Positions 4,638-31,916 are shown, numbered from the stretch's first letter. The stretch: 32,000 bases of DNA from Candidatus Kuenenia stuttgartensis (GCF_900232105.1 NZ_LT934425.1:2160001-2192000), one strand, 5' to 3'. Notes: generated by a model not told the origin, from the letters alone. A program made the numbers and translations.

Positions 4638-4778
4638 GGGTGCATTCCCGATTTTTTGTGACTTCCGCCATGTTTTAATAAAACGTACAGTAGTGTTAAC
4701 CCTGACAGGGTTTCAAACCCTGTCAGGGTTGTTTTGCCCCAACTCCATGAACACTTACAAAAAATCGGGAATGCTCCC
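4638..4778. mobile_element. MITE family A, short form (copy A2), 141 bp
   Basis: TIRs are GGGTGCATTCCCGATTTTTTGT and ACAAAAAATCGGGAATGCTCCC. A perfect 8-bp TSD GTCTAACT lies at 4630-4637 and 4779-4786. It carries an internal perfect palindrome, AACCCTGACAGGGTTTCAAACCCTGTCAGGGTT. Confidence 0.9.
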
Positions 4779-6201: not shown

Positions 6202-6980
6202 AGGTTTTTGATAAATACTCCGAGTATTATGATATTCTCTATAACGACAAAGATTATGCTTCCGAGGCGGGTTTTATTGATACTATCATTAAAAAATACC
6301 GGCCAAATGCAAAATCAATCCTGAATCTCGGGTGCGGCACGGGAACCCATGATTTTCTCTTAGCACAAAAAGGATACGATATTACCGGCATAGACTGTTC
6401 CGGATCTAACATCAAAAAAGCGAACTCAAAACTTACAGATATCGATAAATTTAAAAATTGCCTGGAGTTCCATGAAGGTGATGTTCGCATCTACAGAGCA
6501 AATAAAACCTATGACATTGTTATTTCGCTGTTTCATGTAATCAGTTACCAAATTACTAATGCGGACTTGAAATCTGTTTTTGAAACTGTAAAGATACATC
6601 TGAATAATAATGGGCTTTTTATTTTTGATTGTTGGTACGGACCTGCAGTATTGCATGTGCGACCTGAAACGAGAATTAAGCGAGTAGAGAGTAAAGATAC
6701 CAGAATAATCAGGATTGCAGAACCGGAAATATTTCCAAACGAGAATAAGGTGCATGTAAAGTATCACGTATTCGTCATTGACAAAGTTACCAATAATGTT
6801 ACTGAAATCAGGGAAACCCACCCTATGCGGTATTTATTTAAGCCGGAGATAGATGAATTAGTATCTGTTTCAGGATTAAACACTTTAGAATGTGCCGAAT
6901 GGATGACGGACAATCCTTTAGGTTTAAATACATGGAAGGCTTATTTTGTCGCTACAAAGCAAATGGCGGTTGCTAAATGA
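6198..6980 (+). CDS. Class I SAM-dependent methyltransferase
   Basis: 260 aa. Motif I is ILNLGCGTGTHDFLLAQKGYDITGIDCS. A 4-nt ATGA overlap occurs with both neighbours. Confidence 0.8.
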   Translation: MKVFDKYSEYYDILYNDKDYASEAGFIDTIIKKYRPNAKSILNLGCGTGTHDFLLAQKGYDITGIDCSGSNIKKANSKLTDIDKFKNCLEFHEGDVRIYRANKTYDIVISLFHVISYQITNADLKSVFETVKIHLNNNGLFIFDCWYGPAVLHVRPETRIKRVESKDTRIIRIAEPEIFPNENKVHVKYHVFVIDKVTNNVTEIRETHPMRYLFKPEIDELVSVSGLNTLECAEWMTDNPLGLNTWKAYFVATKQMAVAK

Positions 6981-9900: not shown

Positions 9901-12013
9901 ATTATTTTTAGAAGCTGAGAAACTAATTGAACAGAAGGAATATTCGAATGCACGTGAGATATTGAAAAATATCTTAGAGATCGATGATAGGCACATTGAT
10001 GCACTTAATGATCTTGCGGTTATAGAAATCTCAGAAAATAACCTATTTAACGCAAGAGAAATTTTAAACAAAGTTTTAAGGAATGATTCTAACAATCAAA
10101 TTGCAAAGGAGAACTTGGAATATCTTGAGCAACTAATCCATGTATCAGAAGAGAAAAGTTCAGATATTAAAGTTTCTGCAATAGTATCGACATACAATTC
10201 CGAACGATTTATCCGTGGTTGTTTAGAGGATTTGACAAATCAAACATCATACAAGAAGGGTGCACTGGAAATTATTGTGATAGACAGTTGTTCACCGCAA
10301 AATGAACAAGCTATTGTTGATGAGTTTCAAAAATCATACAGGGACATTGTTTATATACGGACTGAAAAACGGGAAACCATTTATGCCGCCTGGAACCGGG
10401 CAATCAAAATTGCCAAAGGAGAATATATCACTAATGCCAATACGGATGACCGCCACCGCAAGGATGGTTTGGAAATTTTAGCAAATGAATTGGATGAAAA
10501 CCCTGATGTTGTATTGGTATACGGGAATCAAATTATTACCGAAACAGAAAATGAGACCTTTGAACACCACAAACCAGTTGGTGTCTTCCAATGGCCAGAT
10601 TTCAACAGAAATTATTTGTTAAAAGTATGCAGCATTGGACCACAACCGATGTGGAGAAAGTTAGTTCATAGTGAGTTTGGCTATTTTGATGATATATTCC
10701 AGGTCGCCGGAGACTATGAATTTTGGTTAAGAATTTCCCAAAAATATCATTTTAAACATATTCCTGAATATCTGGGATTATATCTAAGATCTCCACAAAG
10801 TGCAGAATATAGAAACCAGGAACTAACCCAACAAGAAACACTTGTTATTCAAGAAAAATATAAAAAGTTAAAGGATATCCAAGAGAAACCCATCGCGAAG
10901 TTACCATTAGTCAGCATCATTATTCCCACTTACAACAGACCAGGCACCCTGAAGATTGCACTGGAGAGTATTGTCGCACAAACGTACAAGTTTATTGAAA
11001 CCATTGTAGTTAACGACGCCGGAATAGATGTGCTAAATGTCATTGATACATTCAGGGATCGATTATCTATCAAATATTTCGTTCACAATATAAATAAAGA
11101 TCGCTCTGCTGCAAGAAATACTGCAATAAAACATGCTTCTGGTAAATATATTGCGTATCTTGATGATGATGATATTTTTTATCCCGACCATATTGAAACA
11201 CTGGTCAGCTTTCTGGAAACAAACAATACTTATAAAGTTGCTTATACAGATGCTTACAGGGCATTTCAAGAGAAGGAACACGGAAAATATATAACAAAAA
11301 ACAAAGAGATACCTTATTCTTTTGACTTTGACTATGATCGTATCCTTACGGGTAATTTTATACCGACGCCCTGTATTATGCATTATAAATCGTGCATTGA
11401 CGTTGTAGGAATATTTGATGAAACGCTTGGTGCTCACGAGGACTGGGATTTATGGATAAGGATGTCAACAAAATTCCAATTTGCGCATATCAGGAAAATT
11501 ACCTGTGAATATTCCTGGAGGGAAGATGGCTCGTCAACCACATTCGGTAGAAAAGAGGTAATGGATTATACAAGAAATGTTGTTTTACAACGGGGAATAA
11601 AAATTTACCGGGAAAAACAAATTAGAGGACTATTTAATAGAGCGGAAGCTTCATTTCAAAGTGGTGCTTACAACGAAGCGATTGATGCATATAAAAAAGC
11701 CATCGAAACAAGCCCTTCTCCCAAGCAACAATTACCGCCGGAAGAAACTTCCCGCCTTTATGACGCATACTACAATCTTGCCCTTTCATACATAAATACC
11801 CAAAAGGTAGACGATGCCATTGCTGCTTTCCGAAAGGCAGTTGAATTACACAATGCTGACGCCACTATTTATAACAATTTGGGCGTTTTGTATTTCAGGA
11901 AAAGAATGCATGATGATGCAAGGCACTGCTTTGAAAAGGCATTGGCAATAGACGTTGATTACGCAGAGGCGCAACAAAATCTTGAAAAAATATCCAGCCT
12001 GAAAATTTCATAA
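6977..12013 (+). CDS. Giant multidomain glycan-assembly protein: sulfotransferase-like + GT-B-like + 2x TPR block + 2x GT2 glycosyltransferase + TPR
   Basis: 1678-aa uninterrupted ORF.
- aa ~10-270: sulfotransferase-like PAPS motifs (YQMGKVGST resembles 5'-PSB; RDPIARDIS resembles 3'-PB).
- aa ~280-650: Rossmann/GT-B-like.
- aa 686-850 and 890-1054: paralogous TPR blocks.
- GT2 domain 1 from about nt 10166 (VSAIVSTYNSERF ... NANTDD).
- GT2 domain 2 from about nt 10904 (VSIIIPTYNRPG ... YLDDDD).
- C-terminal TPRs at about nt 11630-12010. Confidence 0.8.
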   Translation: MKPRQEKNNKSLPPILVYQMGKVGSTAILKSLQRLNLYNRVYHAHFLSKSGIKSVEDYYRSLPYIEVPNHIYESKQICIEIENSTREQKWKVITLVRDPIARDISDLFQNIERDFPQIRTLDSKNALIEIKTYLYNMIIKFDESTDYACSWFDKEIKEVFGFDVYSHDFSKTNGYQIFQTEKADILVIKLEKLSEIHKEAFRQFLDIHDFTIVKENIGSDKWYNEYYKEVVNSLRIPGQIVDKIYDSRYSKHFYTEGELSSFKEKWSGKSFYNKKDKKILIVHPEGNLHNNPNLSGIVEILCENGCSADVFSLKHETIAQKALCYGSQMFLFDGTRDSTAGVCLLASKVFFSPQELALHVRSVYKDYDLVVGVDRGIIEASIIASALEVPCGLISYEIFFADEAGVQFKQTEIHACQNISFAICQDEIRSAQLSKENRIPLEKIINIPVAGRAVKRGERCWYFHDKFGIDHRKKIALLAGSIDKWTMAEELIESVSRWDPEWVLVLHNRYGLDGGVHTIYERYKNKPNIYFSFDPVKLVQDMHILLHSCDLGIALYRATKQGIFTGNNLTYLGMASGKIATYLQHGLPLLINEIGEMSRYVESYGLGISLKSGDGINPGALCEAPFAYKERCYGFFENKLDLNKTIHPFLDKMNSLLRKWQSDSSYGKAGQVSSADVLSISTEKSLEFLNLLVKQELQDGNIQKAKELLSKILNQLPDNIKALNNLAVIEILEKNWDAATEALRKVLYLDPSNKVALENTKQLERHLVLYKAVLEAEKLVGQKQYAEAYKILEKVLEIDKNSVDALNAIAKIRIARNDFEVAGKVLTKVLQLHPANKTAIESLEYIKKQVNVKDHAPLPAGATALGTTAVTTEACSGISGRTEADFQHLLEMLNLQAKQALQEGNAKKAKELLAKVLNQSPNNVKALNNFAVTEILEKNWESAREVLQKILELDPSNNVALENVKYLENQVSLHKLFLEAEKLIEQKEYSNAREILKNILEIDDRHIDALNDLAVIEISENNLFNAREILNKVLRNDSNNQIAKENLEYLEQLIHVSEEKSSDIKVSAIVSTYNSERFIRGCLEDLTNQTSYKKGALEIIVIDSCSPQNEQAIVDEFQKSYRDIVYIRTEKRETIYAAWNRAIKIAKGEYITNANTDDRHRKDGLEILANELDENPDVVLVYGNQIITETENETFEHHKPVGVFQWPDFNRNYLLKVCSIGPQPMWRKLVHSEFGYFDDIFQVAGDYEFWLRISQKYHFKHIPEYLGLYLRSPQSAEYRNQELTQQETLVIQEKYKKLKDIQEKPIAKLPLVSIIIPTYNRPGTLKIALESIVAQTYKFIETIVVNDAGIDVLNVIDTFRDRLSIKYFVHNINKDRSAARNTAIKHASGKYIAYLDDDDIFYPDHIETLVSFLETNNTYKVAYTDAYRAFQEKEHGKYITKNKEIPYSFDFDYDRILTGNFIPTPCIMHYKSCIDVVGIFDETLGAHEDWDLWIRMSTKFQFAHIRKITCEYSWREDGSSTTFGRKEVMDYTRNVVLQRGIKIYREKQIRGLFNRAEASFQSGAYNEAIDAYKKAIETSPSPKQQLPPEETSRLYDAYYNLALSYINTQKVDDAIAAFRKAVELHNADATIYNNLGVLYFRKRMHDDARHCFEKALAIDVDYAEAQQNLEKISSLKIS
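9032..10139 (+). repeat. Intragenic tandem duplication of a ~165-aa TPR block (period 612 nt)
   Basis: Block 9032-9527 (LEFLNLLVKQELQDGNIQKAKELLSKILNQLPDNIKALNNLAVIEILEKNW...) aligns with block 9644-10139 (LEMLNLQAKQALQEGNAKKAKELLAKVLNQSPNNVKALNNFAVTEILEKNW...). They are joined by a low-complexity A/T/G-rich linker. Confidence 0.85.
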
Positions 12014-12216
12014 CACTGGTATACCGCAGAGAAGACGGAGAACGCAAAAGACATGGACAGACTTATGGCTGACAATGTGAAATATTATGACATACACAGA
12101 GCTGACGGGCCGCGCCGTATATTTCACCATGCACCCGATGTCTTTAAGGAAAATAAACAATCAAATATCTGACGCGTCTCAGGAGCCGATAGTATCAGAT
12201 AGACAAATTTGTGAAG

Positions 12217-12710
12217 GGGTGCATTCCTGATTTTTTATAACCGTTTGTGTGATTGGGGCAAAACTACGCTGCAAGGGATGTGACAAGCCTGTCCCCCGCT
12301 GGCGGGGGAATAAGGGGGTGGAATTGTCTGCGGAGGAAATCTGGAAGGTTTATAACATGAATAGCCATAAGTTTTTCTTCTAATTCCTAAGCTTTGCGTG
12401 GAAATGCATGTCACGAAACAGGATAAAATTGTCCATTTGACCCGTGTGCGGAGCGTAGGAAAGAGGGGCAAGTTTGTTTTCATAATAAAGGGGTAGTTGA
12501 ATCGATGGAGAAATCCAGTCCACCCCCTGAACCCCCGCCAGCGGGGGACATTGTTTGAACAACAGGAGCATTCCCGATTTTTTGGTTAACTAATTGTACA
12601 TTGTAACACAAGCATCCTGCTTGTGGCATTTTGCCCTCAAGCTGGAAGCTTGAGTTACTATTCTCTCCCCCTGCTAAATGACATTTTTACAAAAAATCGG
12701 GAATGCTCCC
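12217..12710. mobile_element. MITE family A, long form (copy A3), carrying a nested family D MITE
   Basis: The left end GGGTGCATTCCTGATTTTTTAT... and the following 65 bp match copy A1 at 541-605. The right part, 12556-12710, matches A1 at 600-762 and ends ACAAAAAATCGGGAATGCTCCC. The two halves are separated by a 259-bp element. Confidence 0.8.
12291..12549. mobile_element. MITE family D (259 bp) nested inside family A copy A3
   Basis: The ends are GTCCCCCGCTGGCGGGGG at 12291-12308 and CCCCCGCCAGCGGGGGAC at 12532-12549, a perfect 18-bp TIR. Each arm is itself a GC hairpin. An inner GGGGGTGGA / TCCACCCCC pair is also present. It is absent from the otherwise homologous copy A1. Confidence 0.7.
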
Positions 12711-17679: not shown

Positions 17680-18206
17680 TTTGGGTTAGTATTGTAATTT
17701 GGTTCTACTATGCAAAACCGTGTGTGTCATGTTACATAAAGAATGCTATTGGCATTTTACAACTATATGACAGACAGGGTGATTGCGCTGGTAAGGTAAA
17801 TAAAGAGGATATGTTGTATGTTATTTACAATCAGGTCTCTAAAAAGTGGAAAAGGAATAGCTTGTTCAATAAAACAACTGTGGTATTAAAAAACAGTTTT
17901 CGTATGGAAAAAAACGGAAAATGCACAGACTGGAAAAAAGGATTTGATTTACCGCTATGCAAAAATTGGATGGAATACTTTCTGAAACGTAATTACAAAA
18001 AATGTTACCATGTATAAATGTTTTGTCAAGTCAAATATGCAAAATCAACACCGCATTTACCAAGGTTTCTTGGATTTTTGCTATACACGTTAATTTTTAA
18101 AAAAACGGCCATTGATTTACCTATAGCGGTTTTTTTCATTTTCTCTGCAAGGTTTATTTTAAAAATAGATATGTTCATCCATGCGGGGCGTAAACAAGTA
18201 AATATT

Positions 18207-18429
18207 GTAACATTTTAGCTTTTTGAAAAATTCACGGTATAGAAAAAATACCATGTAGCCCCGTTAGGGGCGGTCTGTTTGTAGCACAATAAAATTCAAT
18301 AGAGTAAATAGCTCCGTAGGAGCGGCCTGTCCGTATTCAGGCAGACCTGTTTAATATGGATTTACAAGAGACAGGTCGCTCCTACGGAGCTTATCGGTAG
18401 TACGTTTTTTTTTAAAACCAAAGTGTTAC
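18207..18429 (-). mobile_element. MITE family B (copy B1, 223 bp), inverted relative to B2
   Basis: Its ends are GTAACATTTTAGC... and ...CCAAAGTGTTAC. Positions 18207-18383 match the reverse complement of 19751-19927 with one mismatch. Relative to B2 it lacks a ~75-bp internal module. I found no clear TSD. Confidence 0.8.
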
Positions 18430-18478: not shown

Positions 18479-18997
18479 TCATTTGCATTGTTGTCTCGGC
18501 CATCCGGAAGGTGGCAATGTGCCAGTGTATTTTTTAAAATACTGTGTAATTTTTTCGTGAGATTCATAGCCAGGTTCTTTTATATCTTCTGTCCGTGTCA
18601 TTACAAGATAGTTATTTTTAAATTCTATTGATGTTGACCATGTGGTAGTATTGCCGTCTTCCGCATCTGTTCCCTCCCAAAAAGAACCGATAAGTCTACT
18701 ACCGGAGATTTTATAAGTAATGGTATCGTCCACTTCGTAGCACTTTTTCTCATGGGTGTACCATTTTGCGGTATTACCATTAAACTGGAAAATTTCTTCA
18801 TCAATCACATTGGTTTCTTTCCAGTCTTCCCGTTCTCCATCATCGATGTCATACCCTTCGACAATTTCTTTTTCCAACAACCATGTCCCTGACAACCCTG
18901 CTGATTCAGAAGAAGATGATTTGTTTTTTTCTTCACATCCGAATCCAAATAACAGGGTAAAAACAAATAACACAACAATTCCCCTATACTTTTTCAT
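18479..18997 (-). CDS. Lipoprotein with a lipocalin-like domain
   Basis: The signal peptide plus lipobox reads MKKYRGIVVLFVFTLLFGFGC, followed by a Ser-rich linker and a GTWLL motif typical of lipocalin-like domains. The start is taken at the internal ATG (18997) rather than the track start at 19045. Confidence 0.7.
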   Translation of the reverse strand: MKKYRGIVVLFVFTLLFGFGCEEKNKSSSSESAGLSGTWLLEKEIVEGYDIDDGEREDWKETNVIDEEIFQFNGNTAKWYTHEKKCYEVDDTITYKISGSRLIGSFWEGTDAEDGNTTTWSTSIEFKNNYLVMTRTEDIKEPGYESHEKITQYFKKYTGTLPPSGWPRQQCK

Positions 18998-19218
18998 ATT
19001 AGCCCCTTTCCCTGAATAGTACTTGTTAAGATTTATAAAAAACATATTACCTTATTTCTAAATTCGAAATAAATTCAAAATTTCAATTCTGCCCACCCTA
19101 CCCTCGCCAGCAAAGGACATTCTCTCCCTCCGGAGGGGAATTGGGGCGCTTTGGAATTTGTTTCGTGCTTCATGCTTGTTTGGTTCTGGCTTGTCCAGCG
19201 TAAGAAGTTCAATATTTT

Positions 19219-19629: not shown

Positions 19630-19927
19630 GTAACACTTTAGTTTTTTGAAAAATGTATTACCTATAAGCTCCGTAGGAGCAGCCTGTTTGTAGCAAAATA
19701 GAATATTATAACAGATCGCAGAGGCAGGTTTGAAACCTGTCTCTGCAATTAGGAGCGACCTGTCTCTTGTAAATCCATATTAAACAGGTCTACCTGAATA
19801 CGGACAGGCCGCTCCTACGGAGCTATTTACTCTATTGAATTTTATTGTGCTACAAACAGACCGCCCCTAACGGGGCTACATGGTATTTTTTCTATACCGT
19901 GAATTTTTCAAAAAGCTAAAATGTTAC
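19630..19927 (+). mobile_element. MITE family B (copy B2, 298 bp)
   Basis: Its ends are GTAACACTTTAG... and ...CTAAAATGTTAC. A perfect 8-bp TSD GTTTTTTG lies at 19622-19629 and 19928-19935. The body is built of hairpin modules (AGCTCCGTAGGAGC..CCTGT and GCCCCGTTAGGGGC). Confidence 0.85.
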
Positions 19928-20031
19928 GTTTTTTGTCATTTTGAATTTGTTTGCAGCCAAAGGCTGCGCCAATTAATCTGTGGTTACTCCTTCATGCTTC
20001 GTTGTTCGTTATAATCTCTTACACAGAAAGG

Positions 20032-20451
20032 TTAATATGATTTCGCCAGGTATCTGATCAAATCTGTGCTGGTAATTATTCCGATAAGGTTGCGGTCGTC
20101 ATCGATGACGGGGAGTGAGTGAAATAGCCCATTACTCAGAATATGTGCAGCTTTTCTCATCGAGTCCCTGATATTAATAGTAACTAAGTTTTTCTGCATA
20201 ACCTGCTCTATGGTATATTGTTGGTCAATTAATTCATCAAGTAATTTAGTATTCGTTTTTGCGGATGCGATGTTGAGTTTTAACATATCGGTAGCGCTGA
20301 TAAGACCCACAAGTTTTCGATCATTTACCACAGGGACATGATGAATTTGGTTTTCTGCCATCATTTTACGTACAGTACTCAGTTTTTGATCTATGGATAC
20401 GGTGTGTACATTTGCCGTTATGACATGAGAAATTGGGTCAAGATTTTTCAT
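20032..20451 (-). CDS. CBS domain pair protein
   Basis: 139 aa with two CBS repeats (HHVPVVNDRKLVGLISATDMLK and HSLPVIDDDRNLIGIITSTDLIRYL). Confidence 0.85.
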   Translation of the reverse strand: MKNLDPISHVITANVHTVSIDQKLSTVRKMMAENQIHHVPVVNDRKLVGLISATDMLKLNIASAKTNTKLLDELIDQQYTIEQVMQKNLVTINIRDSMRKAAHILSNGLFHSLPVIDDDRNLIGIITSTDLIRYLAKSY

Positions 20452-20754
20452 CGTAATTATTTATAAAGATTCACAAATTAAGTAAGAGAAAAATGGTTTG
20501 TAGGTGAAAAAATGCTTTTTTCTGATAACTAACCAGCACAGGCCGGAACTAAACAAAGATTACAACAGAACACGTATATTAAAAAATCGTCATAAGTTTA
20601 CTACTATCAATTAACCATTGTAAGAAGGCAATTACAATGTGTTTATCTTATATAAAAAATCCGGGTAAGGCAAACAAATCATTTCGTGTAAATGATTTGA
20701 GACCAGTATCATTGAGACTTTGGCTCCCAAAGGGAGACGGAAAGTGTTTCTTTT

Positions 20755-21185
20755 TTAGACAATTGAAGTCAAAATACTTTCTATCCATATCCCGACACCT
20801 GTTCCATCGATACAGGACGTTACGATTATATTTAATTCCGGATTAATTGCCAATGCGTTTCGCTTTGCCTTTTCCATATCGAAATTAGTATACGCAAGAA
20901 GGTCCACCTTGTTTATCAGAAGGTGCCGGGCTACTCTGAAGAGGGCGGGATATTTAAGCGGTTTATCGTCACCCTCCGTCACACTCATTACCACCACCTT
21001 GATATCCTCGCCAAGGTCATATTCAGCAGGGCACACCATGTTTTGCTATCCTTTGAGTATCCAGGTCGGTTTGAATATCGCCCTCTATAACGGCTATATT
21101 CACCCTGTCTTTGAGAAGTTCTGCGATTTTTTCAACAATAGAGGTCTTTTCCGGAACCGGGCGAACTCATCAGATGTTTTGATCC
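20755..21185 (-). pseudogene. hypB: Hydrogenase nickel-insertion GTPase HypB remnant (5'-truncated, frameshifted, internally deleted)
   Basis: On the minus strand, LMSSPGSGK (P-loop) is followed by a 1-nt frameshift. TSIVEKIAELLKDRVNIAVIEGDIQTDLDTQRIAKHG then follows, joined out of frame to VCPAEYDLGEDIKVVVMSVTEGDDKPLKYPALF...LLINKVDLL. The segment expected between them (the ENVGNL region) is missing. Only 5 codons precede the LMSS motif, after the stop of hydG. Confidence 0.7.
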
Positions 21186-21188
21186 CGG

Positions 21189-22565
21189 TCAAAAAAACAG
21201 ATCTCTCTCCCCGTTTCTTATCCTTGCAAGCTTATCCTCTGTCTGCTTTTTTATAGAAGCGTTCTCTATTGCTTCCAGTGTCTTATTTATTATCTCCAGC
21301 CCTAAATGTCTGCTTTCCGGAGACGCGTTATCTTCCATATATTCCATAAGTGTAAGTATGCTATTAGGCCCGCAGAATTCCTGGATATCTCCCGGCCTTG
21401 CAAGTTCCATAAACACCGTGCCTGTCCTGCTCCTGCGGTAACAGGCGGTGCAAAAACTGGGCATGAAGCCCTCCTTCATGGCGCTCACGGTTATTTCTTC
21501 CAGACTCCTCTTGTCCGACAGCTCAAACTGTCCAGCCCCTTTTGGCCTTCCCTTCCCCAATCCGCCTGGCGTAGTGCTTGAGGCGGCGCTGGCCTGCGTA
21601 ATCCCGATGCGGAATGCCGCCTCTCTGATCTCAGGACTTTCCCTTGTGGTTATTATCATGCCTGTATAAGGAACGGCGATCCGAAGGATTGCTATGAGCC
21701 TCAGAAAATCGCTGTCACTTACAGGTGAAGGGGGTCTCAAATTAACCGAATGGGCGGGCCTGAGCCTTGGTATGGATATGGTGTGCGGGCCGGTTCCGAA
21801 CGTATCAAAAAGGTAAGCGGCATGGGATATCAGCCCCAGCACCTCATACCGCCAGTCATAGAGTCCGAAGAGTACGCCCATCCCTACGTCATCTATCCCG
21901 CCCTCAAAGGCTTTGTCCAGGGCATACAACTGTCTCCGGTAATCACTTTTAGGACCATGGTGGATTTTTTCGTAGGTAGGCCTGTGATAACTCTCCTGGA
22001 ATAGCTGGTATGTTCCAATGCCTTTGTCCTTTAGCCTTCTGTAGTTTTCAGCCGTTGTTGCGGCGATGTTTACATTGACCCTTCTTATTTCACCCTTTTC
22101 ATTCCTCACAGAATAGATGGCATCTATTGCATCAAGGATATAATCGACCGGATTATTTCCGATATCCTCTCCTGCCTCAAGAAGGACTCTCTTATGTCCC
22201 ATTTCTATGAGGCAGCCCGTCTGTTCTCTTACCTCATCCATGGTAAGTTTTTTTCTCATTGCAGGGTTACCTGCACGAAAGCCGCAGTATAGGCAATCAT
22301 TTACACAGTAATTGCTGATATAGAGGGGGGCGAAGAACACTAGTCTGCTGCCGTATACGGCATTTTTTATGTAACGGGCGGCGTCAAATATCTCCTCGGT
22401 TAACTCCAGATCGATGACGTTTATCAACATCGCCGCTTCTTCAGGGGTAAGCCCTTTCAGCTCCCTGCCCTTTTTTAAAACATCCGCCAGCATAGCCGTC
22501 GACGGTGAGGGGGTATTCGTGAGCAAGGATTGAAATCTATCTTCGTCTATAAATGTTTTTTGCAT
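21189..22565 (-). CDS. hydG: Radical SAM tyrosine lyase HydG ([FeFe]-hydrogenase H-cluster maturase type)
   Basis: 458 aa with the radical SAM motif CVNDCLYCGFR. The C-terminal CX2CX22C motif (CTAC + 22 residues + C, in SFCTACYRRSRTGTVFMELARPGDIQEFCGPN) distinguishes HydG from ThiH. Confidence 0.85.
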   Translation of the reverse strand: MQKTFIDEDRFQSLLTNTPSPSTAMLADVLKKGRELKGLTPEEAAMLINVIDLELTEEIFDAARYIKNAVYGSRLVFFAPLYISNYCVNDCLYCGFRAGNPAMRKKLTMDEVREQTGCLIEMGHKRVLLEAGEDIGNNPVDYILDAIDAIYSVRNEKGEIRRVNVNIAATTAENYRRLKDKGIGTYQLFQESYHRPTYEKIHHGPKSDYRRQLYALDKAFEGGIDDVGMGVLFGLYDWRYEVLGLISHAAYLFDTFGTGPHTISIPRLRPAHSVNLRPPSPVSDSDFLRLIAILRIAVPYTGMIITTRESPEIREAAFRIGITQASAASSTTPGGLGKGRPKGAGQFELSDKRSLEEITVSAMKEGFMPSFCTACYRRSRTGTVFMELARPGDIQEFCGPNSILTLMEYMEDNASPESRHLGLEIINKTLEAIENASIKKQTEDKLARIRNGERDLFF

Positions 22566-22850
22566 GATTCATAATCTCAAAACAATAACCAGTTCTTTAA
22601 GGCTCTTTCTTCATTTATCAATTAATTCCTACTGGTTTTAACTTTTATTTTCCATCTAAATTATTGGTATTTATTCCTTAAGCAACAAGTTTTTCTATAT
22701 ATCCCTCTCTTTTACTCCATACCATTGGTTCGATTCCATAAGCCTTGAGGGCGTTTGCCAATCATCTGTAACAAATCAGCTCTGTCATTTTGCCTGTTTA
22801 GCTTTTTAGATGACACAGCTAATCGGCAATAATCTTTTCAGTTCGCCTTT

Positions 22851-23270
22851 TCATCCTCTTTCCATTTGAGACAGAACCGACTGATTTAGAAATAGCGTAT
22901 TCCAAAGTTTTGTTGTGTTAAGAATTAAATTGAGAAAACCTTTAGTGAGTATTTTTTCGTTTTCCCGAATTACAGTTAACTCATCTGAACAAACCGCATC
23001 AAAAGTTAGAACAGAAGATCTTCTTTTGAATTGAAAAATTGAAACGTTTCTTCGCGCAAAAATTATGTCTCCTTCATAACATAATTTTCCCGAACCTATA
23101 TCTTCAGGGCTTCTGAAATTTTTAATAAACAGTTGTCCTGCATCTAAATCCTCTGGTCTTATAAATCTTTCACAACCAGATTTTGCAGGTGACAAAACTT
23201 CTTCATTGATTTCATCTGCAATGAAACCTATGGCTATTTCATTCCAATTTGATTTATCAGGTTCAATCAT
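22851..23270 (-). pseudogene. Type I restriction-modification specificity subunit (HsdS) fragment, a single target-recognition-domain remnant
   Basis: The 139-aa ORF carries the TRD-like pattern ...YEGDIIFARRN......DAVCSDELTVIRENEKILTKGFLNLILNT... It lacks the second TRD and the conserved coiled-coil regions. It lies directly downstream of the hsdM remnant. Confidence 0.5.
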
Positions 23271-23315
23271 TTCCTGTTTCTATTCCAATTGAATTCAGTT
23301 TGTCAAACAAAACTT

Positions 23316-23569
23316 TCACGGACGTTTGATAATTTTTAATTCCTGTTCTTCCATAGCATTTCTAAATTCTTCATCCCAAACATCAGAGATGCGTTTGAAA
23401 AACAGTAATGGAAAAATTTATTGCTTAAAATCAGCCGCAGCAATCATTCCTCTCAGAATGTTGGCTGCCCCTGCCCCCAGAGATTGTCTTCAAGTTGTTT
23501 TTTAGTCATGTTTTTAAAGCCGTGTAAATAGTCGACAGGCTTACTCTTCTTTGTATCCAGATCATTCAT
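23316..23569 (-). pseudogene. Type I R-M methyltransferase (HsdM) N-terminal remnant with a frameshift and an in-frame stop
   Basis: The minus-strand reading is MNDLDTKKSKPVDYLHGFKNMTKKQLEDNLWG, then a frameshift, then AANILRGMIAAADFKQ, then a stop, then IFPLLFFKRISDVWDEEFRNAMEE. This is the characteristic HsdM N-terminal domain. The methyltransferase core is absent. Confidence 0.6.
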
Positions 23570-23627
23570 TTGTCAATCTTTCAATAATCTTCAATCTGTA
23601 TATGTAGCGCCGTGGTTGCCGATATGG

Positions 23628-24911
23628 TTATTTAAACGCCTCCGCCATCTTTTTCTCAAGCATCTTGTAGCTAAGTGTTTCTTTATAAAGTCCGTATTTT
23701 TCCCAAATCTCTTCTTTCCCGTGATACTTATTTGGGTATATCCTGTAGTCGCCCCTGTACTTCTCAGGCGTCAGATTAAACATAAGCGAATTTGCGCCTG
23801 AAGAGAGTCCGAGCCGTCTTCCTTCTTCATTTTCAATGGTTTCAAGGGCGGTAGTGACCGGTATCTTTGCCTTTGGCATCAGCAATCTTGAAACGGCCGT
23901 TACCTTAAGCGTCATTGCCGCACTACCCGCCGGATGCACAGCCATAGGAGTGGTGTCTGTGGGTATAAACGGGCCTGCGGTCACCATGTTTGCGCCAATG
24001 GATTTAATAGTTATTATATCATCCGCTATATCCTCAACCGTCTGTCCGGGCAGCCCGATGAGAAACCCTGTGGCAATAAAATATCCCATCTTCTTCATTT
24101 CCATGAGTAGCGCAATCCTATCATCGAATGACTGGCCGGGGTGAAGGGAATGATAGAGCGCCTTGTTTGAAGTTTCAAAACGAAACAGAACGCCGTTTGC
24201 CCCGGCATCTTTCATTTTTCTGTAACCTTCTGACGTTCGTTCCCCAACGCTCATAAATATAAAAACCTTACACTTCTCCTTTATTTTTCTGATGATCCCG
24301 GACAGTATCTCGTTGGTATAGGATAAGTCGTCGCCCGACTGGAGAACTATAAGTTTATATCCGCGGTGGTTTACGGCGTCATACACGGAATTTACTATTT
24401 CATCCGGCGTCATTCTGTAACGCCGGACATTTTTTGAGTCCCTTCTGAGTCCGCAGTATAGGCAGTTCCTGACGCAATAGTTTGAAAACTCTACTATGCC
24501 GTGTATGCAGAAAAAATCCCTTAGCCTTGCCTGTCTTATGGTATTTGCCTCTGAAAACATGGCGGTCATCTCCGCATCCTCGCTGGTGCTGAGAAGCCTT
24601 ATTATCTCTTCGCGTTTAAGCTCTCTGGTGTGGCAAGCCTTGAGTATCTCCAGAAATGCGGCATCGAGCTTCGAAATATCTACATAACTTTTAGGCTCAA
24701 GGAGATCCAGTATTTCCCTCGCATCGTCTTCGCTTATTTTTTCCACCGCCGTATCAGAGGCGTAAAGAATCCAGTCACCGGCATGGACGTCAGTAAGCAA
24801 TGCGATTATCGATCTTTCGCCTTTTGAATCACGAATAGTAATTCTTCTTGCAGGCAAATTATCGGGTGAATCTTCAACGAATAGTACTTTTGCAGGAATG
24901 GTAAGGCACAT
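23628..24911 (-). CDS. hydE: Fusion protein: HypC/HupF-like N-terminal domain + HydE-type radical SAM maturase
   Basis: The start is taken at MCLTIPAKV (24911), which is the HypC-family N-terminal Met-Cys motif. It is followed by ...GDWILYASDTAVEKISEDDAREILDLL (HypC beta-barrel plus helix pattern). After a linker comes the HydE-like core IVEFSNYCVRNCLYCGLRRDSKNVRRYRMTPDEIV ... GFLIGLPGQT. The 27 codons upstream in the track ORF run into a dispersed repeat and are rejected. Confidence 0.75.
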   Translation of the reverse strand: MCLTIPAKVLFVEDSPDNLPARRITIRDSKGERSIIALLTDVHAGDWILYASDTAVEKISEDDAREILDLLEPKSYVDISKLDAAFLEILKACHTRELKREEIIRLLSTSEDAEMTAMFSEANTIRQARLRDFFCIHGIVEFSNYCVRNCLYCGLRRDSKNVRRYRMTPDEIVNSVYDAVNHRGYKLIVLQSGDDLSYTNEILSGIIRKIKEKCKVFIFMSVGERTSEGYRKMKDAGANGVLFRFETSNKALYHSLHPGQSFDDRIALLMEMKKMGYFIATGFLIGLPGQTVEDIADDIITIKSIGANMVTAGPFIPTDTTPMAVHPAGSAAMTLKVTAVSRLLMPKAKIPVTTALETIENEEGRRLGLSSGANSLMFNLTPEKYRGDYRIYPNKYHGKEEIWEKYGLYKETLSYKMLEKKMAEAFK

Positions 24912-24953
24912 AACAAAACCTCTTTGTTTGCAACAGGTTAGATTTTTGAAAAA

Positions 24954-25087
24954 GTAGGGGCGAAGCATTTGCCCGTTTGGGTATGAACGCATTCATGATA
25001 ATTTATAGCAAATGCTTCGCCCCTACACTTTACACTATGCGGAAAACATCGCTATTATTGGAATTTTTCAAAAAACTAAAATGTTAC
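24954..25087. repeat. 19-bp perfect inverted repeat plus a solo family-B-like MITE terminus
   Basis: GTAGGGGCGAAGCATTTGC (24954-24972) and GCAAATGCTTCGCCCCTAC (25008-25026) are separated by a 35-nt spacer. GAATTTTTCAAAAAACTAAAATGTTAC (25061-25087) matches the B2 terminus. A related arm fragment (AGGGCGAAGCATTTGC) occurs near 25781. Confidence 0.7.
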
Positions 25088-25101
25088 AAGAGTTCTTTTT
25101 T

Positions 25102-25725
25102 TTAACTCTCTTTCCAATCTATCAATTTACCAGACGGCGGAAGGGTTTTTTTTTGAATAAGCATCTGTAAAAGTTCATCAGGGTTGTCCGACCTCAGAAT
25201 TAGCTGGCCATGTTCCGGTCTTGCGAAGCGTTCTCTGATAATATGGTCTATAAATTGCAGCAACAGATCGAAATATCCTTCTACGTTAAGTATGCCGATC
25301 GGTTTTGCGTGCAATTCCAACTGCGACCATGTGACAATCTCAAAAAATTCGTCCATCGTGCCACATCCGCCCGGCATAGCGATAAAGGCGTCGGATAACT
25401 GTACCATCAGCGTCTTTCTCTCGTGCATGCTGGCAACTTCGTGAAATTCCGTTACTTCGCGGCGAACAATTTCTCTGGAAAAAAGCGCCTTCGGTATTAC
25501 CCCGATAACCTCTCCCTTTTCGCGCATAACGGTTTCCGCAATAACTCCCATGAGCCCGACACTGCCTCCTCCGTATACAAGCCCAATGCCGCGGGCGGTT
25601 AGTGCCTTTCCCAGTTTTTTTGCCGCATCCTTATATGCGGGACGTTGTCCGCTGTTTGACCCGCAAAATACGCAAATACGTTTTACGGGAATATTGTTTT
25701 CCATGTCCATTGAATTTCTGTTCAT
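25102..25725 (-). CDS. LOG-family protein (TIGR00730-type nucleotide phosphoribohydrolase / lysine-decarboxylase-like)
   Basis: 207 aa with ICVFCGS, GLVYGGGSVGLMG and the PGGCGTMDEFFE motif. Confidence 0.85.
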   Translation of the reverse strand: MNRNSMDMENNIPVKRICVFCGSNSGQRPAYKDAAKKLGKALTARGIGLVYGGGSVGLMGVIAETVMREKGEVIGVIPKALFSREIVRREVTEFHEVASMHERKTLMVQLSDAFIAMPGGCGTMDEFFEIVTWSQLELHAKPIGILNVEGYFDLLLQFIDHIIRERFARPEHGQLILRSDNPDELLQMLIQKKTLPPSGKLIDWKES

Positions 25726-27848: not shown

Positions 27849-29117
27849 TCAATTATTGCGGCATCGCTGTTTCAACAGTTTCACAAGGTTCCCCGGTATA
27901 GAGATCTTTGCTATCGGAGTGTCAACCTTTCTTTTTCCGTGAAAGTCGGAACCGCCGGTTGCCACAAGGTCATATTTTTTTGCGAGTTTGAGGTATTTCT
28001 CCACGGTAGCTTTAGTATATGCAGGGTAGTACACTTCTATTCCCTGCAAACCATACCTTACAAGGTCCTCAATTAAATTATCCCGTTGTGTAAGTCCCGG
28101 ATGGGCAAGCACCGGAGCCCCTTTCGCTTCTCTTATCAGCTCTATTGCCTCTTGTGGAGTTAAGGTTTTTTTGGGAACATATGCGGGCGCTTTATCACCA
28201 ATGTATTTATAAAAGGCATCCACTAATGTGCTGGTATATCCGTTGCGCCAGATTACTTCTGCTAAATGCATACGTCCAGGTGAACCTTCCCCTGCAAGAT
28301 CAAACACTTCAACCGGATTGATCTCTACCTGAAGCCCGTGCAGTTTTTCTATCATTTTGTAAATACGTTCAATTCTGTCCTCACGTGCCTTTTTCATTAA
28401 TCCAATTAATGCATCATTATGAATATCAATAAAATAACCTAAAATATGTATTTCTGAAGGGTCCAGAAATGCAGAAATTTCTATGGCGGGAATAATTTGC
28501 AAATTCCCCCCTTTATTGTATTTGTCTGCCCTCAAAAATCCCTGAATAGTATCATGATCGGTGATGGCAATTGCGGATAAACCCAGTCGTATGGCTTCAT
28601 CAACAACCTCTTCCGGCGTTGCAGTGCCATCGGAGAAATTTGTGTGTATATGTAAGTCGGAAATGCCAAAATCAGGGGCTTTTTCCTCTTGTATCGTGTC
28701 TTTCTGTTTTCCGTTTTTCAGCCAATTGTATACTTTATCTAAAATACCATTAACAAACATCCCGGAATCTTTATCGCCGAATTTTTTGGCAAGTTCTATT
28801 GCTTCATTAATAGAAACCTTTGGTGGGATGTCATCTCTATAGAGCAACTCATACACGCCAAGTCTCAGGATGTTCTTGTCAATGACGGCCATCCGGTGCA
28901 AATCCCAGTTTTCCGCGGAAAGTGAAATTCTTTCATCGATCTCTTTTACATGAGATCTGCAGCCCGTGACAAGCAACAGGGCAAACTTATATATATCAGG
29001 TTTTTCCGCATTCTGCCGGCAGAATTCATCTATTTCCGTTTCCGCTTTGTCTCCGAGTAAATCGAGCTGATACAACGCTTTAATGGCAAGCTCGCGGGCA
29101 ATTGTTCTGTTGCGCAT
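27849..29117 (-). CDS. nusB: Fusion protein: NusB antitermination factor + PHP-domain phosphoesterase (TrpH/YciV, RNase AM-like)
   Basis: aa 1-~140 read RTIARELAIKALYQLDL...INEAIELAKKFGDKDSGMFVNGILDKV (NusB). aa ~150-422 read ISDLHIHTNFSDGTATPEEVVDEAIRLGLSAIAITDHDT ... LAHPG ... GIEVYYP ... ATGGSDFHG (PHP metal-binding motifs). It lies downstream of ribH, the classic ribH-nusB arrangement. Confidence 0.8.
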   Translation of the reverse strand: MRNRTIARELAIKALYQLDLLGDKAETEIDEFCRQNAEKPDIYKFALLLVTGCRSHVKEIDERISLSAENWDLHRMAVIDKNILRLGVYELLYRDDIPPKVSINEAIELAKKFGDKDSGMFVNGILDKVYNWLKNGKQKDTIQEEKAPDFGISDLHIHTNFSDGTATPEEVVDEAIRLGLSAIAITDHDTIQGFLRADKYNKGGNLQIIPAIEISAFLDPSEIHILGYFIDIHNDALIGLMKKAREDRIERIYKMIEKLHGLQVEINPVEVFDLAGEGSPGRMHLAEVIWRNGYTSTLVDAFYKYIGDKAPAYVPKKTLTPQEAIELIREAKGAPVLAHPGLTQRDNLIEDLVRYGLQGIEVYYPAYTKATVEKYLKLAKKYDLVATGGSDFHGKRKVDTPIAKISIPGNLVKLLKQRCRNN

Positions 29118-30175: not shown

Positions 30176-31516
30176 GTGGATATAAAAGAGGAAGAGTACG
30201 GGAAAATCGAAGACGCCAGGATGCCTTTAGGCTCACATTTGGAAGAGTTGCGGCGTAGAGTCTTTTATTCTATCATCGCAATTATTTTCTGTTTTATATT
30301 ATGCTGGGTCTTTAAGCTGCACATTTTGGATATAGTAAAGCGGCCTCATGGCATTGCTATGCATAAGCTGGGACTTTCCACCGAATTGCAAGTGCTGAGT
30401 TATCAGGAAGGTTTTTACGCATACATGAAGCTGTGCTTCATCAGCGCCATTTTTTTAATGTATCCCCTTATCATTTATCAGGCATGGAGATTTGTCAGCG
30501 CGGGGCTGTATGCGAAGGAAAAAAGGTACATTCTCGTTTTCTTCCCGGTTTCATACATTGCTTTCGTTATGGGCGGGCTTTTCGGATATTATTTATTAAT
30601 CCCCTTTGGCTTGCAATTTTTAATAAGCATCCTTGGCCCCGGCATTCAACCCATCATTACGATGCAACAATATGTGTCGTTTGTTTTCCTGCTGACGGTC
30701 GCGCTTGGGCTGGTATTTCAACTACCTCTTGTAATGCTGCTTTTGTCAAAGATAGGATTCGTATCTGCAGATAACTTTATTAAGTGGAGAAAATATTCAA
30801 TACTTGTTATTTTCATTATTGCTGCCATAGTAACACCGCCAGACCCTTTTACCCAGACAATGACAGCCGCCCCAATGATCCTGTTGTATGAATTAGGGAT
30901 ACTCGTGGCAAAACCAACAAAAAAGGGGTTTATTTTACTTGGTATGGTTGTTGGGCTTGGTATTGTCGCCCTCGCGGCAGCATATTTTTATTTTACACAT
31001 ACACGAGGAATGATAGACCTTTCCCGCGTCTATGGGAATATGCAATTACAAAAGGCCGAAGATCATAAGTGGAAAAAGGTATCCTCTGTTGACCGCTTCC
31101 ATAGCGGCGTTGTTCTCAAAACCGGCGACGGAGAGAAGTCTTCATTTTCGACTAAAAATGGGATTGGCGTAAACATGGATTCGAATACCGAAATGTACTT
31201 TATTGATCCATGGAAAATTAACCTCCAAAAAGGGCAAATATTTCTCTCCCTTGCAAACTTGAAAAAAAATCTGGAGATTCTTACCCTAAATGGAAAGATT
31301 GTGGCAGATAACGGAATTTTTAATGTCCGGATAACGGAGTACGCCACTATTGTTACTGCGGTAAAGGGAGAAGCCACATTAATGCTGGAAGGTGAAACAA
31401 AAAAATTGCTTGAGGGCAGACAGCGCAAAATGGCTGCCGGGGGAGAACCCGTGGATATTCATTCCATAATTGATTGGTCTGAAGGCATCATAACGGATGT
31501 ACAGGGCAAAGAATAA
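30176..31516 (+). CDS. tatC: TatC twin-arginine translocase subunit with an extra TM helix and a C-terminal FecR-like domain
   Basis: aa ~16-250 form the TatC core (MPLGSHLEELRRR, FVSAGLYAKEKRY, IVTPPDPFTQ). aa ~252-274 form an additional hydrophobic helix (GFILLGMVVGLGIVALAAAYFYF). aa ~280-446 are a beta-rich FecR-like pattern (W..V...D.F..G..LKTGDG..S.F....G..V.MDSNTE......K..L.KGQ.F.....K...LEI.T..G.I.....IFNV........V.AVKGEA.L). The start is either GTG 30176 or ATG 30221. Confidence 0.75.
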   Translation: MDIKEEEYGKIEDARMPLGSHLEELRRRVFYSIIAIIFCFILCWVFKLHILDIVKRPHGIAMHKLGLSTELQVLSYQEGFYAYMKLCFISAIFLMYPLIIYQAWRFVSAGLYAKEKRYILVFFPVSYIAFVMGGLFGYYLLIPFGLQFLISILGPGIQPIITMQQYVSFVFLLTVALGLVFQLPLVMLLLSKIGFVSADNFIKWRKYSILVIFIIAAIVTPPDPFTQTMTAAPMILLYELGILVAKPTKKGFILLGMVVGLGIVALAAAYFYFTHTRGMIDLSRVYGNMQLQKAEDHKWKKVSSVDRFHSGVVLKTGDGEKSSFSTKNGIGVNMDSNTEMYFIDPWKINLQKGQIFLSLANLKKNLEILTLNGKIVADNGIFNVRITEYATIVTAVKGEATLMLEGETKKLLEGRQRKMAAGGEPVDIHSIIDWSEGIITDVQGKE

Positions 31517-31573: not shown

Positions 31574-31916
31574 GCGGGTTCAGGTTACAAACCAATGTCA
31601 TTAAGTTAAGAATTATTGTAACACTTTGGTTTAAAAAAAAACGTATTACCGATAAGCTCCGTAGGAGCAACCTGTTTGTAGTAGATAGAATACCATAACA
31701 GATATTAGCTCCGTCAGGAGCGGCCTGTCTTCCTGTCAATCATATACAGGCCGCTCCTACGGAGCTATTTACCTGTTGAATTTTATTGTGCTACAAACAG
31801 ACCGCCCCTAAAGGGGCTACATTGTTTTTTATATCCCCTTGAATTTTTCAAATAACTAAGGTGTTAAGAATTATTTTATTAAAAACAACCCCCTTTTCCC
31901 CCTTTATTAACTGGGG
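31574..31916. mobile_element. MITE family C copy (C2), interrupted by a family B MITE; right terminus not identified
   Basis: GCGGGTTCAGGTTACAAACCAATGTCATTAAGTTAAG matches the C1 terminus in reverse orientation. After the inserted element, the AAAAACAACCCCC...CCCCTTTATT region matches the C1 interior. Confidence 0.55.
31618..31867 (+). mobile_element. MITE family B (copy B3, 250 bp) nested in C2
   Basis: Its ends are GTAACACTTTGG... and ...CTAAGGTGTTAA. An 8-bp TSD GAATTATT lies at 31610-31617 and 31868-31875 (9 bp, AGAATTATT, if the last base is assigned to the TSD). The interior shares hairpin modules with B1 and B2. Confidence 0.8.

Follow-up and report, generated by a model that had tools for sequence, protein, structure and literature searches.

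The maturation machineries of [FeFe]- and [NiFe]-hydrogenases are taught as unrelated. In the former, the radical S-adenosylmethionine (SAM) enzyme HydG converts tyrosine into an Fe(Cys)(CO)2(CN) synthon, and HydE carries out a radical attack on the cysteine sulfur of this synthon. In the latter, HypC holds the Fe(CN)2(CO) unit on its N-terminal Cys for transfer to the apo large subunit, with HypD, HypE and HypF responsible for cyanide ligand supply and assembly, and HypA and HypB for nickel insertion. Fusion of HydE to a partner is known from the Chlamydomonas-type HydEF, in which HydE is joined to the HydF scaffold of the [FeFe] pathway. A further accessory protein of [NiFe]-hydrogenases, HypX, produces CO aerobically by formyl-tetrahydrofolate/coenzyme A decarbonylation (PMC6802093). 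We here analysed a 32,000-nt stretch of the chromosome of Candidatus Kuenenia stuttgartensis (NZ_LT934425.1:2160001-2192000; the window is this whole stretch), from a Kuenenia-like anammox bacterium, which encodes HydG and a HypC-HydE fusion protein. The module that they form links the two machineries by gene order and gene fusion, and the two intact genes are probably the surviving half of a [NiFe]-hydrogenase cluster that used hybrid HydG + HypC-HydE maturation. All of the relevant genes lie on the minus strand, and positions are counted from the first letter of the window:

23628..24911, minus strand: hypC-hydE fusion gene, 427 aa from MCLTIP, stop codon included (TIGR03956 and PF01455 matches)
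24696..24911, minus strand: HypC-like domain of the fusion, residues 1-72, with an invariant Met-Cys start, five strands and a helix (PF01455 match and fold)
23628..24653, minus strand: HydE radical SAM barrel of the fusion, residues 87-427, with CX3CX2C at C146/C150/C153 (alignment with Thermotoga maritima HydE)
24912..24925, minus strand: Shine-Dalgarno sequence AAAGAGG and spacer, before the ATG at 24911 (sequence reading and N-termini of homologues)
21189..22565, minus strand: hydG, intact, 458 aa (full-length matches to TIGR03955 and PDB 4wcx)

By its length, its profile score and both of its cluster motifs, the gene at 21189..22565 is a genuine hydG. Its product scored 531.7 bits against the TIGR03955 profile (cutoff 312) and matched Thermoanaerobacter italicus HydG, of known crystal structure (PDB 4wcx), over residues 4-458 with 530 bits, including the C-terminal cluster motif. 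Both motifs could be read directly, the radical SAM CX3CX2C as ISNYCVNDCLYCGF and the C-terminal CX2CX22C as FCTACYRRSRTGTVFMELARPGDIQEFC. The gene shares 79-80% identity with hydG of three Brocadiales loci (L006, L008 and L009), with a ratio of nonsynonymous to synonymous substitutions (dN/dS) of 0.09-0.12. In comparison with the described HydG proteins (TIGR03955; PDB 4wcx, 4rtb), only the context differs, since hydG of this family is paired with HypC-HydE and [NiFe] genes, and is even fused to HypC-HydE in two lineages.

We then examined the fusion gene. Its longest mechanical open reading frame (ORF) encodes 454 aa (23628-24992) and opens at the ATG at 24992. This start was rejected, since it has no Shine-Dalgarno sequence, whereas AAAGAGG lies 8 nt upstream of the ATG at 24911, and MCLTIPA is residue 1 in essentially all homologues. 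The start is thereby placed at MCLTIP, and not downstream of the HypC-like part, an outcome against which the preliminary description of this locus had guarded. Residues 93-404 of the fusion (120-431 of the 454-aa ORF) exceeded the cutoff of the HydE profile TIGR03956 by a narrow margin (280.5 bits, cutoff 254.6), and residues 87-396 aligned with residues 14-320 of T. maritima HydE with 265 bits (E=8e-78, about 41-46% identity). The RxET, TTA and QSGxD substrate-site stretches are common to both proteins in this alignment, which is the sole basis of our residue-level comparison with HydE; we found no named HydE active-site residues in PMC11826987. The three cysteines of the radical SAM motif (C146/C150/C153) are invariant in the family alignment. 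The C-terminal auxiliary-cluster cysteines, which are dispensable in T. maritima HydE, are lacking from the fusion, as no Cys follows residue 153 in the C-terminal region of the barrel, its last 30 residues contain none, and the alignment stops before the cluster motif of the T. maritima enzyme. The AlphaFold2 model consists of two domains, with a predicted local distance difference test score (pLDDT) of 88.5 and a predicted template modelling score (pTM) of 0.88, and its best Foldseek match in the PDB was T. maritima HydE (template modelling (TM) score 0.86-0.90, normalised to the target). Thus, the fusion shares the full TIM-barrel radical SAM fold and CX3CX2C with HydE (TIGR03956; T. maritima HydE, PDB 3cix/7o1o/8qmk), but it adds the N-terminal HypC, lacks the auxiliary-cluster cysteines and falls into a separate clade.

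The N-terminal part, in which about 75 aa had been described as HypC-like, indeed matched the HupF_HypC profile PF01455 over residues 1-71 (40.5 bits, cutoff 28.5), scored below the cutoff of TIGR00074 (34.9 bits, cutoff 48), and matched Thermococcus kodakarensis HypC in a phmmer search (E=1.8e-4). The HypC hallmark, Met-Cys followed by (L/I)x(I/V)P, is present: M1, C2, L3, T4, P6 and W47 are invariant among 51 homologues, and MCLTIPA as a whole is invariant or nearly so. When the N-terminal 78 residues were modelled alone (pLDDT 84), the top four PDB matches were all HypC (2z1c, 2ot2, 3vyu and 3vys), of which 2z1c was the best (TM 0.70/0.73, root-mean-square deviation 2.1 Å; the two best matches gave 0.70-0.73). 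The fused domain thus has the same Met-Cys, OB-like five-strand barrel with a C-terminal helix and [NiFe] operon context as HypC/HybG/HupF (PF01455; PDB 2z1c, 2ot2, 3vyr), but differs in being joined to a radical SAM enzyme, in the loss of the conserved His and in its TIGR00074 score. Taken together, the profile scores, the HydE alignment and the models bear out both genes as they had been proposed in the preliminary description, with their motifs, the MCLTIP start and the HypC fold.

The fusion is one conserved protein family, far beyond chance. The best 120 protein clusters all belong to it (120/120, 51-100% identity), carrying PF01455 and PF04055 in 419-450 aa, save for a few shorter, apparently truncated entries; where NCBI gives a name, it is '[FeFe] hydrogenase H-cluster radical SAM maturase HydE'. 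With one genome scanned for each species, at least 320 fusion loci were obtained, and among the best 80 of the 320, in which the conservation of residue 1 was judged, nearly all match the fusion from residue 1. The carriers include Brocadiales, Desulfobacterota/Syntrophales, a metagenome-assembled genome (MAG) labelled Methylomirabilis, very many Patescibacteria of the candidate phyla radiation (CPR), and one Aenigmatarchaeota MAG (a DPANN archaeon). HypC fusions account for about 16 of the 150 top representatives in a library clustered at 50% identity, and all of the 22 HypC-fused sequences fell into one clade (29 of 149 tips) of a neighbour-joining tree of the HydE domain, which is rough and carries no support values. 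We also asked whether a local deletion in a decaying hyp/hyd locus had created the fusion as an artefact, and rejected this on account of the same architecture in 320 genome loci and a dN/dS of 0.11. According to the preliminary description, a widespread fusion already annotated as an ordinary HydE, with canonical hydA/hydF elsewhere, would speak against a special role; the fusion did prove to be widespread and so annotated, while no hydA or hydF was found within the up to 10 kb examined on each side of it.

Two independent triple fusions, HypC-HydE-HydG, were found, with 881 aa (P0121; L074 10001-12646) and 906 aa (P0126; L093 8001-10721). Another protein of 803 aa (P0142) is a HydE-HydG fusion without HypC, and a HydE-like subgroup (P0143, P0166, P0169 and P0170; L092 4413-5735) has, instead of HypC, an N-terminal PF11823 'putative Se/S carrier' domain, with hydG directly upstream in the single context viewed. 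Fusion of HydE to small carrier domains seems to have taken place several times.

The genomic context of the fusion ties it to [NiFe]-, not to [FeFe]-hydrogenases. We called ORFs in all of the fetched loci, clustered them and counted the recurring neighbours, covering 81 distinct loci with up to 10 kb on each side of the fusion. As a result, hydG was found immediately downstream of the fusion in 49 of the 81 loci, often with overlapping stop and start codons, and [NiFe]-hydrogenase genes lay within 10 kb in 50/81, with both present in 37/81; hypA, hypB or hycI were also frequent near the fusion. The large-subunit cluster (41 loci) carries the motifs RICGICPVVH and DPCISCATH as well as PF00374, and its best NCBIfam match is sulfhydrogenase alpha (ShyA/HydA-like). 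It is joined by clusters for the small subunit (39 loci), the FAD/NAD/2Fe-2S gamma subunit (30 loci) and the 4Fe-4S beta subunit (28 loci), the latter two of the sulfhydrogenase type, and the four together make up a group-3b-type enzyme. The identities of HypA and HycI among the neighbours were confirmed as well. The typical gene order in CPR bacteria is beta-gamma-(fusion)-(hydG)-small-large-hypA. In the Brocadiales loci L006, L008 and L009, the large subunit is of a distinct, group-1/NiFeSe-like type. The association extends to divergent members: the fusion follows NicO...beta-gamma-delta-alpha-HycI (P0133) or large subunit-HycI-HypA (P0135), is itself followed by hydG (P0127 and P0130), or has hydG and hypA 4.5 kb away (P0132), and the triple fusion P0126 stands directly after a beta-gamma-delta-alpha-HycI (3b) operon according to Pfam. 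Furthermore, from locus to locus, sequence identity drops to a similar extent in the fusion and in HydG (84/79, 67/68 and about 52/55%), as expected for a co-inherited pair.

The components of the two canonical systems were sought in the same neighbourhoods. A six-frame motif scan of 84 loci and the window detected no HydA P1-P3, HydF CxH...HCxxC, HypD GPGCPVC or HypF zinc-finger motifs, the stray matches in the 84 loci being one GFETT, inside a fusion gene, and one isolated PRIC*. HydA and HydF signatures were thus found in none of the 81 loci (0/81), and HypD, HypE, HypF, HydA and HydF in none of seven Pfam-annotated neighbourhoods of more distant members; in all, about 90 neighbourhoods yielded hypA, hypB and hycI, but no hypD, hypE or hypF. 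In the window, no motif of HydA, HydF, a [NiFe] subunit, HypD, HypE or HypF occurs in any frame, and none of the larger ORFs matched these families in profile libraries, in agreement with the earlier statement that HydF, HydA and [NiFe] structural genes are missing from it. The neighbours of the fusion thus differ from those of HydE in being [NiFe] genes and not hydF/hydA. Compared with the canonical HypA-F system, HypA, HypB and HycI are present in the neighbourhoods examined and HypD, HypE and HypF are absent; in particular, apart from the single GFETT, the HypD partner (GPGCPVC, GFETT) of a HypC is not seen within 10 kb of the fusions.

Within these operons, many CPR [NiFe] large subunits (e.g. 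L047 7241-8542) end at the His of DPCISCATH and have no cleavable C-terminal extension, yet genes for HycI-type or degenerate endopeptidase-like proteins (cluster c23, no Pfam match) occur in some of the related operons. Another cluster, c14 (e.g. L076 9444-9971), comprises proteins of 170-200 aa with a SAM-methyltransferase-like DLGSGDGR motif, an N-terminal hydrophobic segment and no Pfam match; its gene lies between those of the gamma subunit and the fusion in seven loci (L047, L060, L068, L076, L077, L079 and L084), in five of which hydG is non-adjacent.

An 'unusual HydE-HypC fusion' is mentioned in a 2026 preprint on the 1.5-Mb genome of a Legionellales symbiont, where it belongs to a [NiFe] operon that also contains HybD, HypA and HypB (bioRxiv 10.64898/2026.04.11.717937). 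This independent record of the association takes one line, without interpretation, and the preprint makes no mention of HypD, HypE or HypF. Beyond this mention, we found no study of the HydG/HypC-HydE module in a literature search with limited coverage of subscription journals, in which an earlier description is possible. The module joins a HydE subfamily to a HypC derivative and is linked to [NiFe] genes.

We next compared the window with its Brocadiales relatives, in which (L006, L008 and L009) the gene order is fusion-hydG-hypA-hypB-small-large subunit. The window aligns with the Brocadiales loci at four places, namely the fusion, hydG, hypB codons 39-82 and hypB codons 122-214, and lacks hypA, the start of hypB, 131 bp within hypB and both the small and large subunits. 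Of this cluster, only the fusion and hydG are intact in the window, because the hydrogenase genes have been deleted, and, from this gene order, the module appears as the leftover of a [NiFe]-hydrogenase cluster. The debris comprises:

20755..21176, minus strand: hypB pseudogene, 5'-truncated, frameshifted and with a 131-bp internal deletion (pieces in three frames; hypB of relatives)
22932..23518, minus strand: type I restriction-modification (R-M) remnants between the fusion and hydG (tblastn with hsdM/hsdS of L005)
23346-23518, minus strand: hsdM 5' fragment, frameshifted (tblastn with intact hsdM of L005)
22932-23258, minus strand: hsdS-like fragment, inside a 139-aa ORF at 22851-23270 (tblastn with intact hsdS of L005)

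The decayed hypB that had been noticed directly 3' of hydG was confirmed as such. It is spread over three frames, with the P-loop 'SPGSGKD', the stretch 'SIVEKIAELLKDRVNIAVIEGDIQTDLDTQRIAKHGVPC*' and a 94-aa C-terminal ORF, and does not encode an intact GTPase with the P-loop in one frame. In blastn/tblastn, it falls into two pieces that cover HypB residues 39-82 and 122-214, its TIGR00073 match is limited to profile positions 122-211, and, relative to the intact hypB of relatives, it has lost the first ~100 bp in addition to the internal 131 bp. The fusion and hydG are separated by 1 kb, which might have held a hydF remnant; this was ruled out, as the gap contains type I R-M debris. In Kuenenia hertensis (L001) and Candidatus Kuenenia sp. 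Bin_40 (L005), an intact type I R-M system follows the fusion, and hydG is missing. Bin_40, which is the closest to the window among the carriers (93% amino-acid and 93.6% nucleotide identity over the syntenic flank), has no hydrogenase or hydG within 20 kb around the fusion, and K. hertensis retains hypA and hypB, with both hydrogenase subunits reduced to short remnants. The cluster is thus being dismantled in differing ways within the genus Kuenenia, and the window records the stepwise loss of a hydrogenase cluster in a Kuenenia-like anammox bacterium.

This decay bears on the state of the two genes themselves, which could be non-functional relics on the way to becoming pseudogenes after the loss of the hydrogenase, hypA and hypB. 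The hypB pseudogene, the deleted hypA and structural genes, the R-M debris between the fusion and hydG, and the sister genomes already devoid of hydG or hydrogenase all favour such a fate. However, both ORFs are full length with every motif intact, and the dN/dS of the fusion against the Bin_40 orthologue, which itself has no hydrogenase or hydG nearby, is 0.11, inside the range of 0.05-0.30 of the flanking housekeeping genes, although a pairwise dN/dS is blind to very recent relaxation. The relic reading is plausible, if short of probable, and it is compatible with the family-level conclusion. The window genes would thus either serve a hydrogenase encoded elsewhere in the genome, or be a recent relic whose loss of function is too recent to register.

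Just past the point where the hydrogenase genes are missing, we also found an inverted repeat of 185 nt with 98% complementarity (18200-18384 and 19750-19934). It encloses a 1.4-kb segment with a 188-aa lipoprotein-like ORF (18479-19045), and partial copies occur 12 kb away (31613-31686 and 31773-31830) and in another Brocadiales genome (L006 7300-7412). The repeat may be a dispersed element resembling miniature inverted-repeat transposable elements, and is a candidate boundary of deletion or recombination.

Because the hydG/fusion pair recurs inside [NiFe] operons, the family suggests a second way to build an iron-carbonyl-cyanide centre. Indeed, the maturation route crossing the [FeFe] and [NiFe] pathways, as envisaged in the preliminary description, gained strong support from the [NiFe] operon context over several phyla and the lack of local hydA/hydF, while the direct hand-off of an Fe(CO)x(CN)y unit from HydG/HydE to the HypC-like domain, also part of that proposal, is hypothetical. 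Its alternative, an unknown metalloenzyme as the client, is not needed, the evident client being a standard four-cysteine [NiFe] large subunit. In the mechanism that we propose, HydG would cleave tyrosine to yield an Fe(Cys)(CO)2(CN)-type synthon, as for the H-cluster, and the HydE barrel, whose substrate-site residues match those of T. maritima HydE, would remove the cysteine from it. The tethered HypC-like domain would then take the resulting Fe-carbonyl/cyanide unit on Cys2 and hand it to the apo large subunit, directly or via a standalone HypC, after which HypA and HypB would insert nickel. The gene order and fusions, the RxET/TTA/QSGxD match to T. maritima HydE and the extreme conservation of the N-terminal Cys motif favour this scheme. 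As in the Chlamydomonas-type HydEF, HydE would be joined to the recipient of its product, but the recipient here would be a HypC-type [NiFe] carrier. In its strongest form, HydG and HypC-HydE would constitute a complete HypD/E/F-independent route to Fe(CN)2(CO), with both diatomic ligands derived from tyrosine and delivery on the N-terminal Cys of the fused HypC, which we consider possible but doubtful.

If true, this would explain the source of the [NiFe] carbonyl in anaerobic CPR bacteria, Brocadiales, some Desulfobacterota and a DPANN archaeon, and would mean that the [FeFe] and [NiFe] maturation systems can replace each other where the Fe(CO)(CN) synthon is concerned. The origin of the CO ligand in anaerobic [NiFe]-hydrogenases is a long-standing question, for which the module offers a concrete, testable candidate pathway.

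Several observations weigh against the proposed module and its hand-off. The HydG product carries two CO and one CN and the [NiFe] site one CO and two CN, and an extra ligand-exchange step must therefore be assumed. The canonical HypC His, which stands after the GDW(V/I)(L/I)V motif and is His51 in Escherichia coli HypC, is not kept in the fused domains; the alignment has Ala at this position in the window and A/I/T/S in the family, mostly preceded by Tyr. In the census, 31 of the 81 loci have no [NiFe] gene in the sequence examined, including 14 of the 32 with at least 8 kb on both sides, and hydG does not adjoin the fusion in many of the [NiFe]-linked loci. The window has no client hydrogenase, and the two sister Kuenenia genomes have kept the fusion and lost hydG. 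Finally, nine loci with a second, His-bearing standalone HypC need explaining.

In these nine loci, the extra HypC gene lies directly upstream of the fusion and keeps the canonical His (LLAHGELA or LLVHGELA); five of the proteins (L041, L043, L049, L071 and L075) are 76-77 aa long, the others being those of L034, L040, L045 and L072, and several standalone HypCs have His-rich C-terminal tails (GHAHVHSH). Nine operons thus contain two HypC-type modules, because a His-bearing standalone HypC adjoins the His-less fused domain. This suggests a relay and not direct delivery, in which case the last chaperone may be one other than the fused domain.

The same nine loci favour the main alternative, which is fully compatible with the data. 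Here, the module would supply only CO, or Fe-CO, beside distant hypC, hypD, hypE and hypF genes: HypE and HypF would make the cyanide, the carbonyl would come from HydG and HydE when oxygen is absent, and docking to HypC/HypD would be the part of the fused domain. In general, hyp genes are often scattered in genomes, and the CO source in anaerobic [NiFe] maturation is a long-standing question. Such a module would occupy the same logical slot as HypX, that of a dedicated carbonyl source, and would differ in its unrelated fold and chemistry, radical SAM cleavage of tyrosine; HypX works with HypCDEF (PMC6802093). Nevertheless, none of the ~90 neighbourhoods with their hypA, hypB and hycI contains hypD, hypE or hypF, many of the carriers are CPR bacteria with very small genomes, and HydG is generally known to make cyanide too, which would render HypE and HypF redundant. 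We therefore regard a CO-only supplier as rather unlikely, and retain the hybrid module as the preferred reading.

The two proteins could also be ordinary [FeFe] maturases, with HydA and HydF encoded elsewhere, an incidental or stabilising HypC-like extension, and a coincidental proximity to hyp and [NiFe] genes. Both of them score above the NCBIfam equivalog cutoffs for HydE and HydG, NCBI calls all of the family members HydE, which is the current database annotation, the window HydG is about equally similar to canonical T. italicus HydG and to the CPR family members, and the HydE substrate-site stretches match those of T. maritima. This reading, however, leaves the neighbourhood statistics unexplained (HydA/HydF signatures in 0/81 loci versus [NiFe] genes in 50/81), and the [NiFe] association recurs with different gene orders, with two [NiFe] groups and in different phyla. 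Moreover, the invariant MCLTIPA N-terminus indicates strong selection on the HypC part, and the fused HydEs form their own clade, which makes ordinary [FeFe] maturation improbable. The label '[FeFe] hydrogenase maturase HydE/HydG' in hundreds of genomes, those of CPR bacteria especially, may accordingly imply an [FeFe] metabolism wrongly.

It is very improbable that the module matures another Fe-carbonyl/cyanide or sulfur cofactor where no hydrogenase is nearby, as in a CPR subgroup beside type IV pilus genes: both hydG and [NiFe] genes are out of view in 19 of the 81 loci, and the related HydE subgroup bears the PF11823 Se/S carrier, but the neighbour clustering brought out no recurrent gene for another client, and the absence of [NiFe] genes within 10 kb is not their absence from the genome.

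The flanks of the locus are ordinary chromosome, with polA, coaE, rho, ftsY and tatC, and a promoter and terminator scan of 20400-25300 gave counts not above those in shuffled sequence. Among the flanking genes of the window, two have unusual domain combinations: that at 27849-29117 joins, as judged from its translation, a NusB-like N-terminus to a PHP-type phosphoesterase region, and that at 30176-31516 encodes a TatC fused to a FecR domain (Pfam). A 1678-aa protein (6977-12013) combines a capsular-polysaccharide NKWYS domain with many TPR repeats and two GT2 glycosyltransferase domains, and its gene adjoins aminotransferase and methyltransferase genes. This polysaccharide gene block is surrounded by a second dispersed repeat family (510-719, 4718-4778 and 12186-12669; 60-97 nt, 77-90% identical, in direct and inverted copies), with a DDE transposase gene (1988-3091) between two of the copies.

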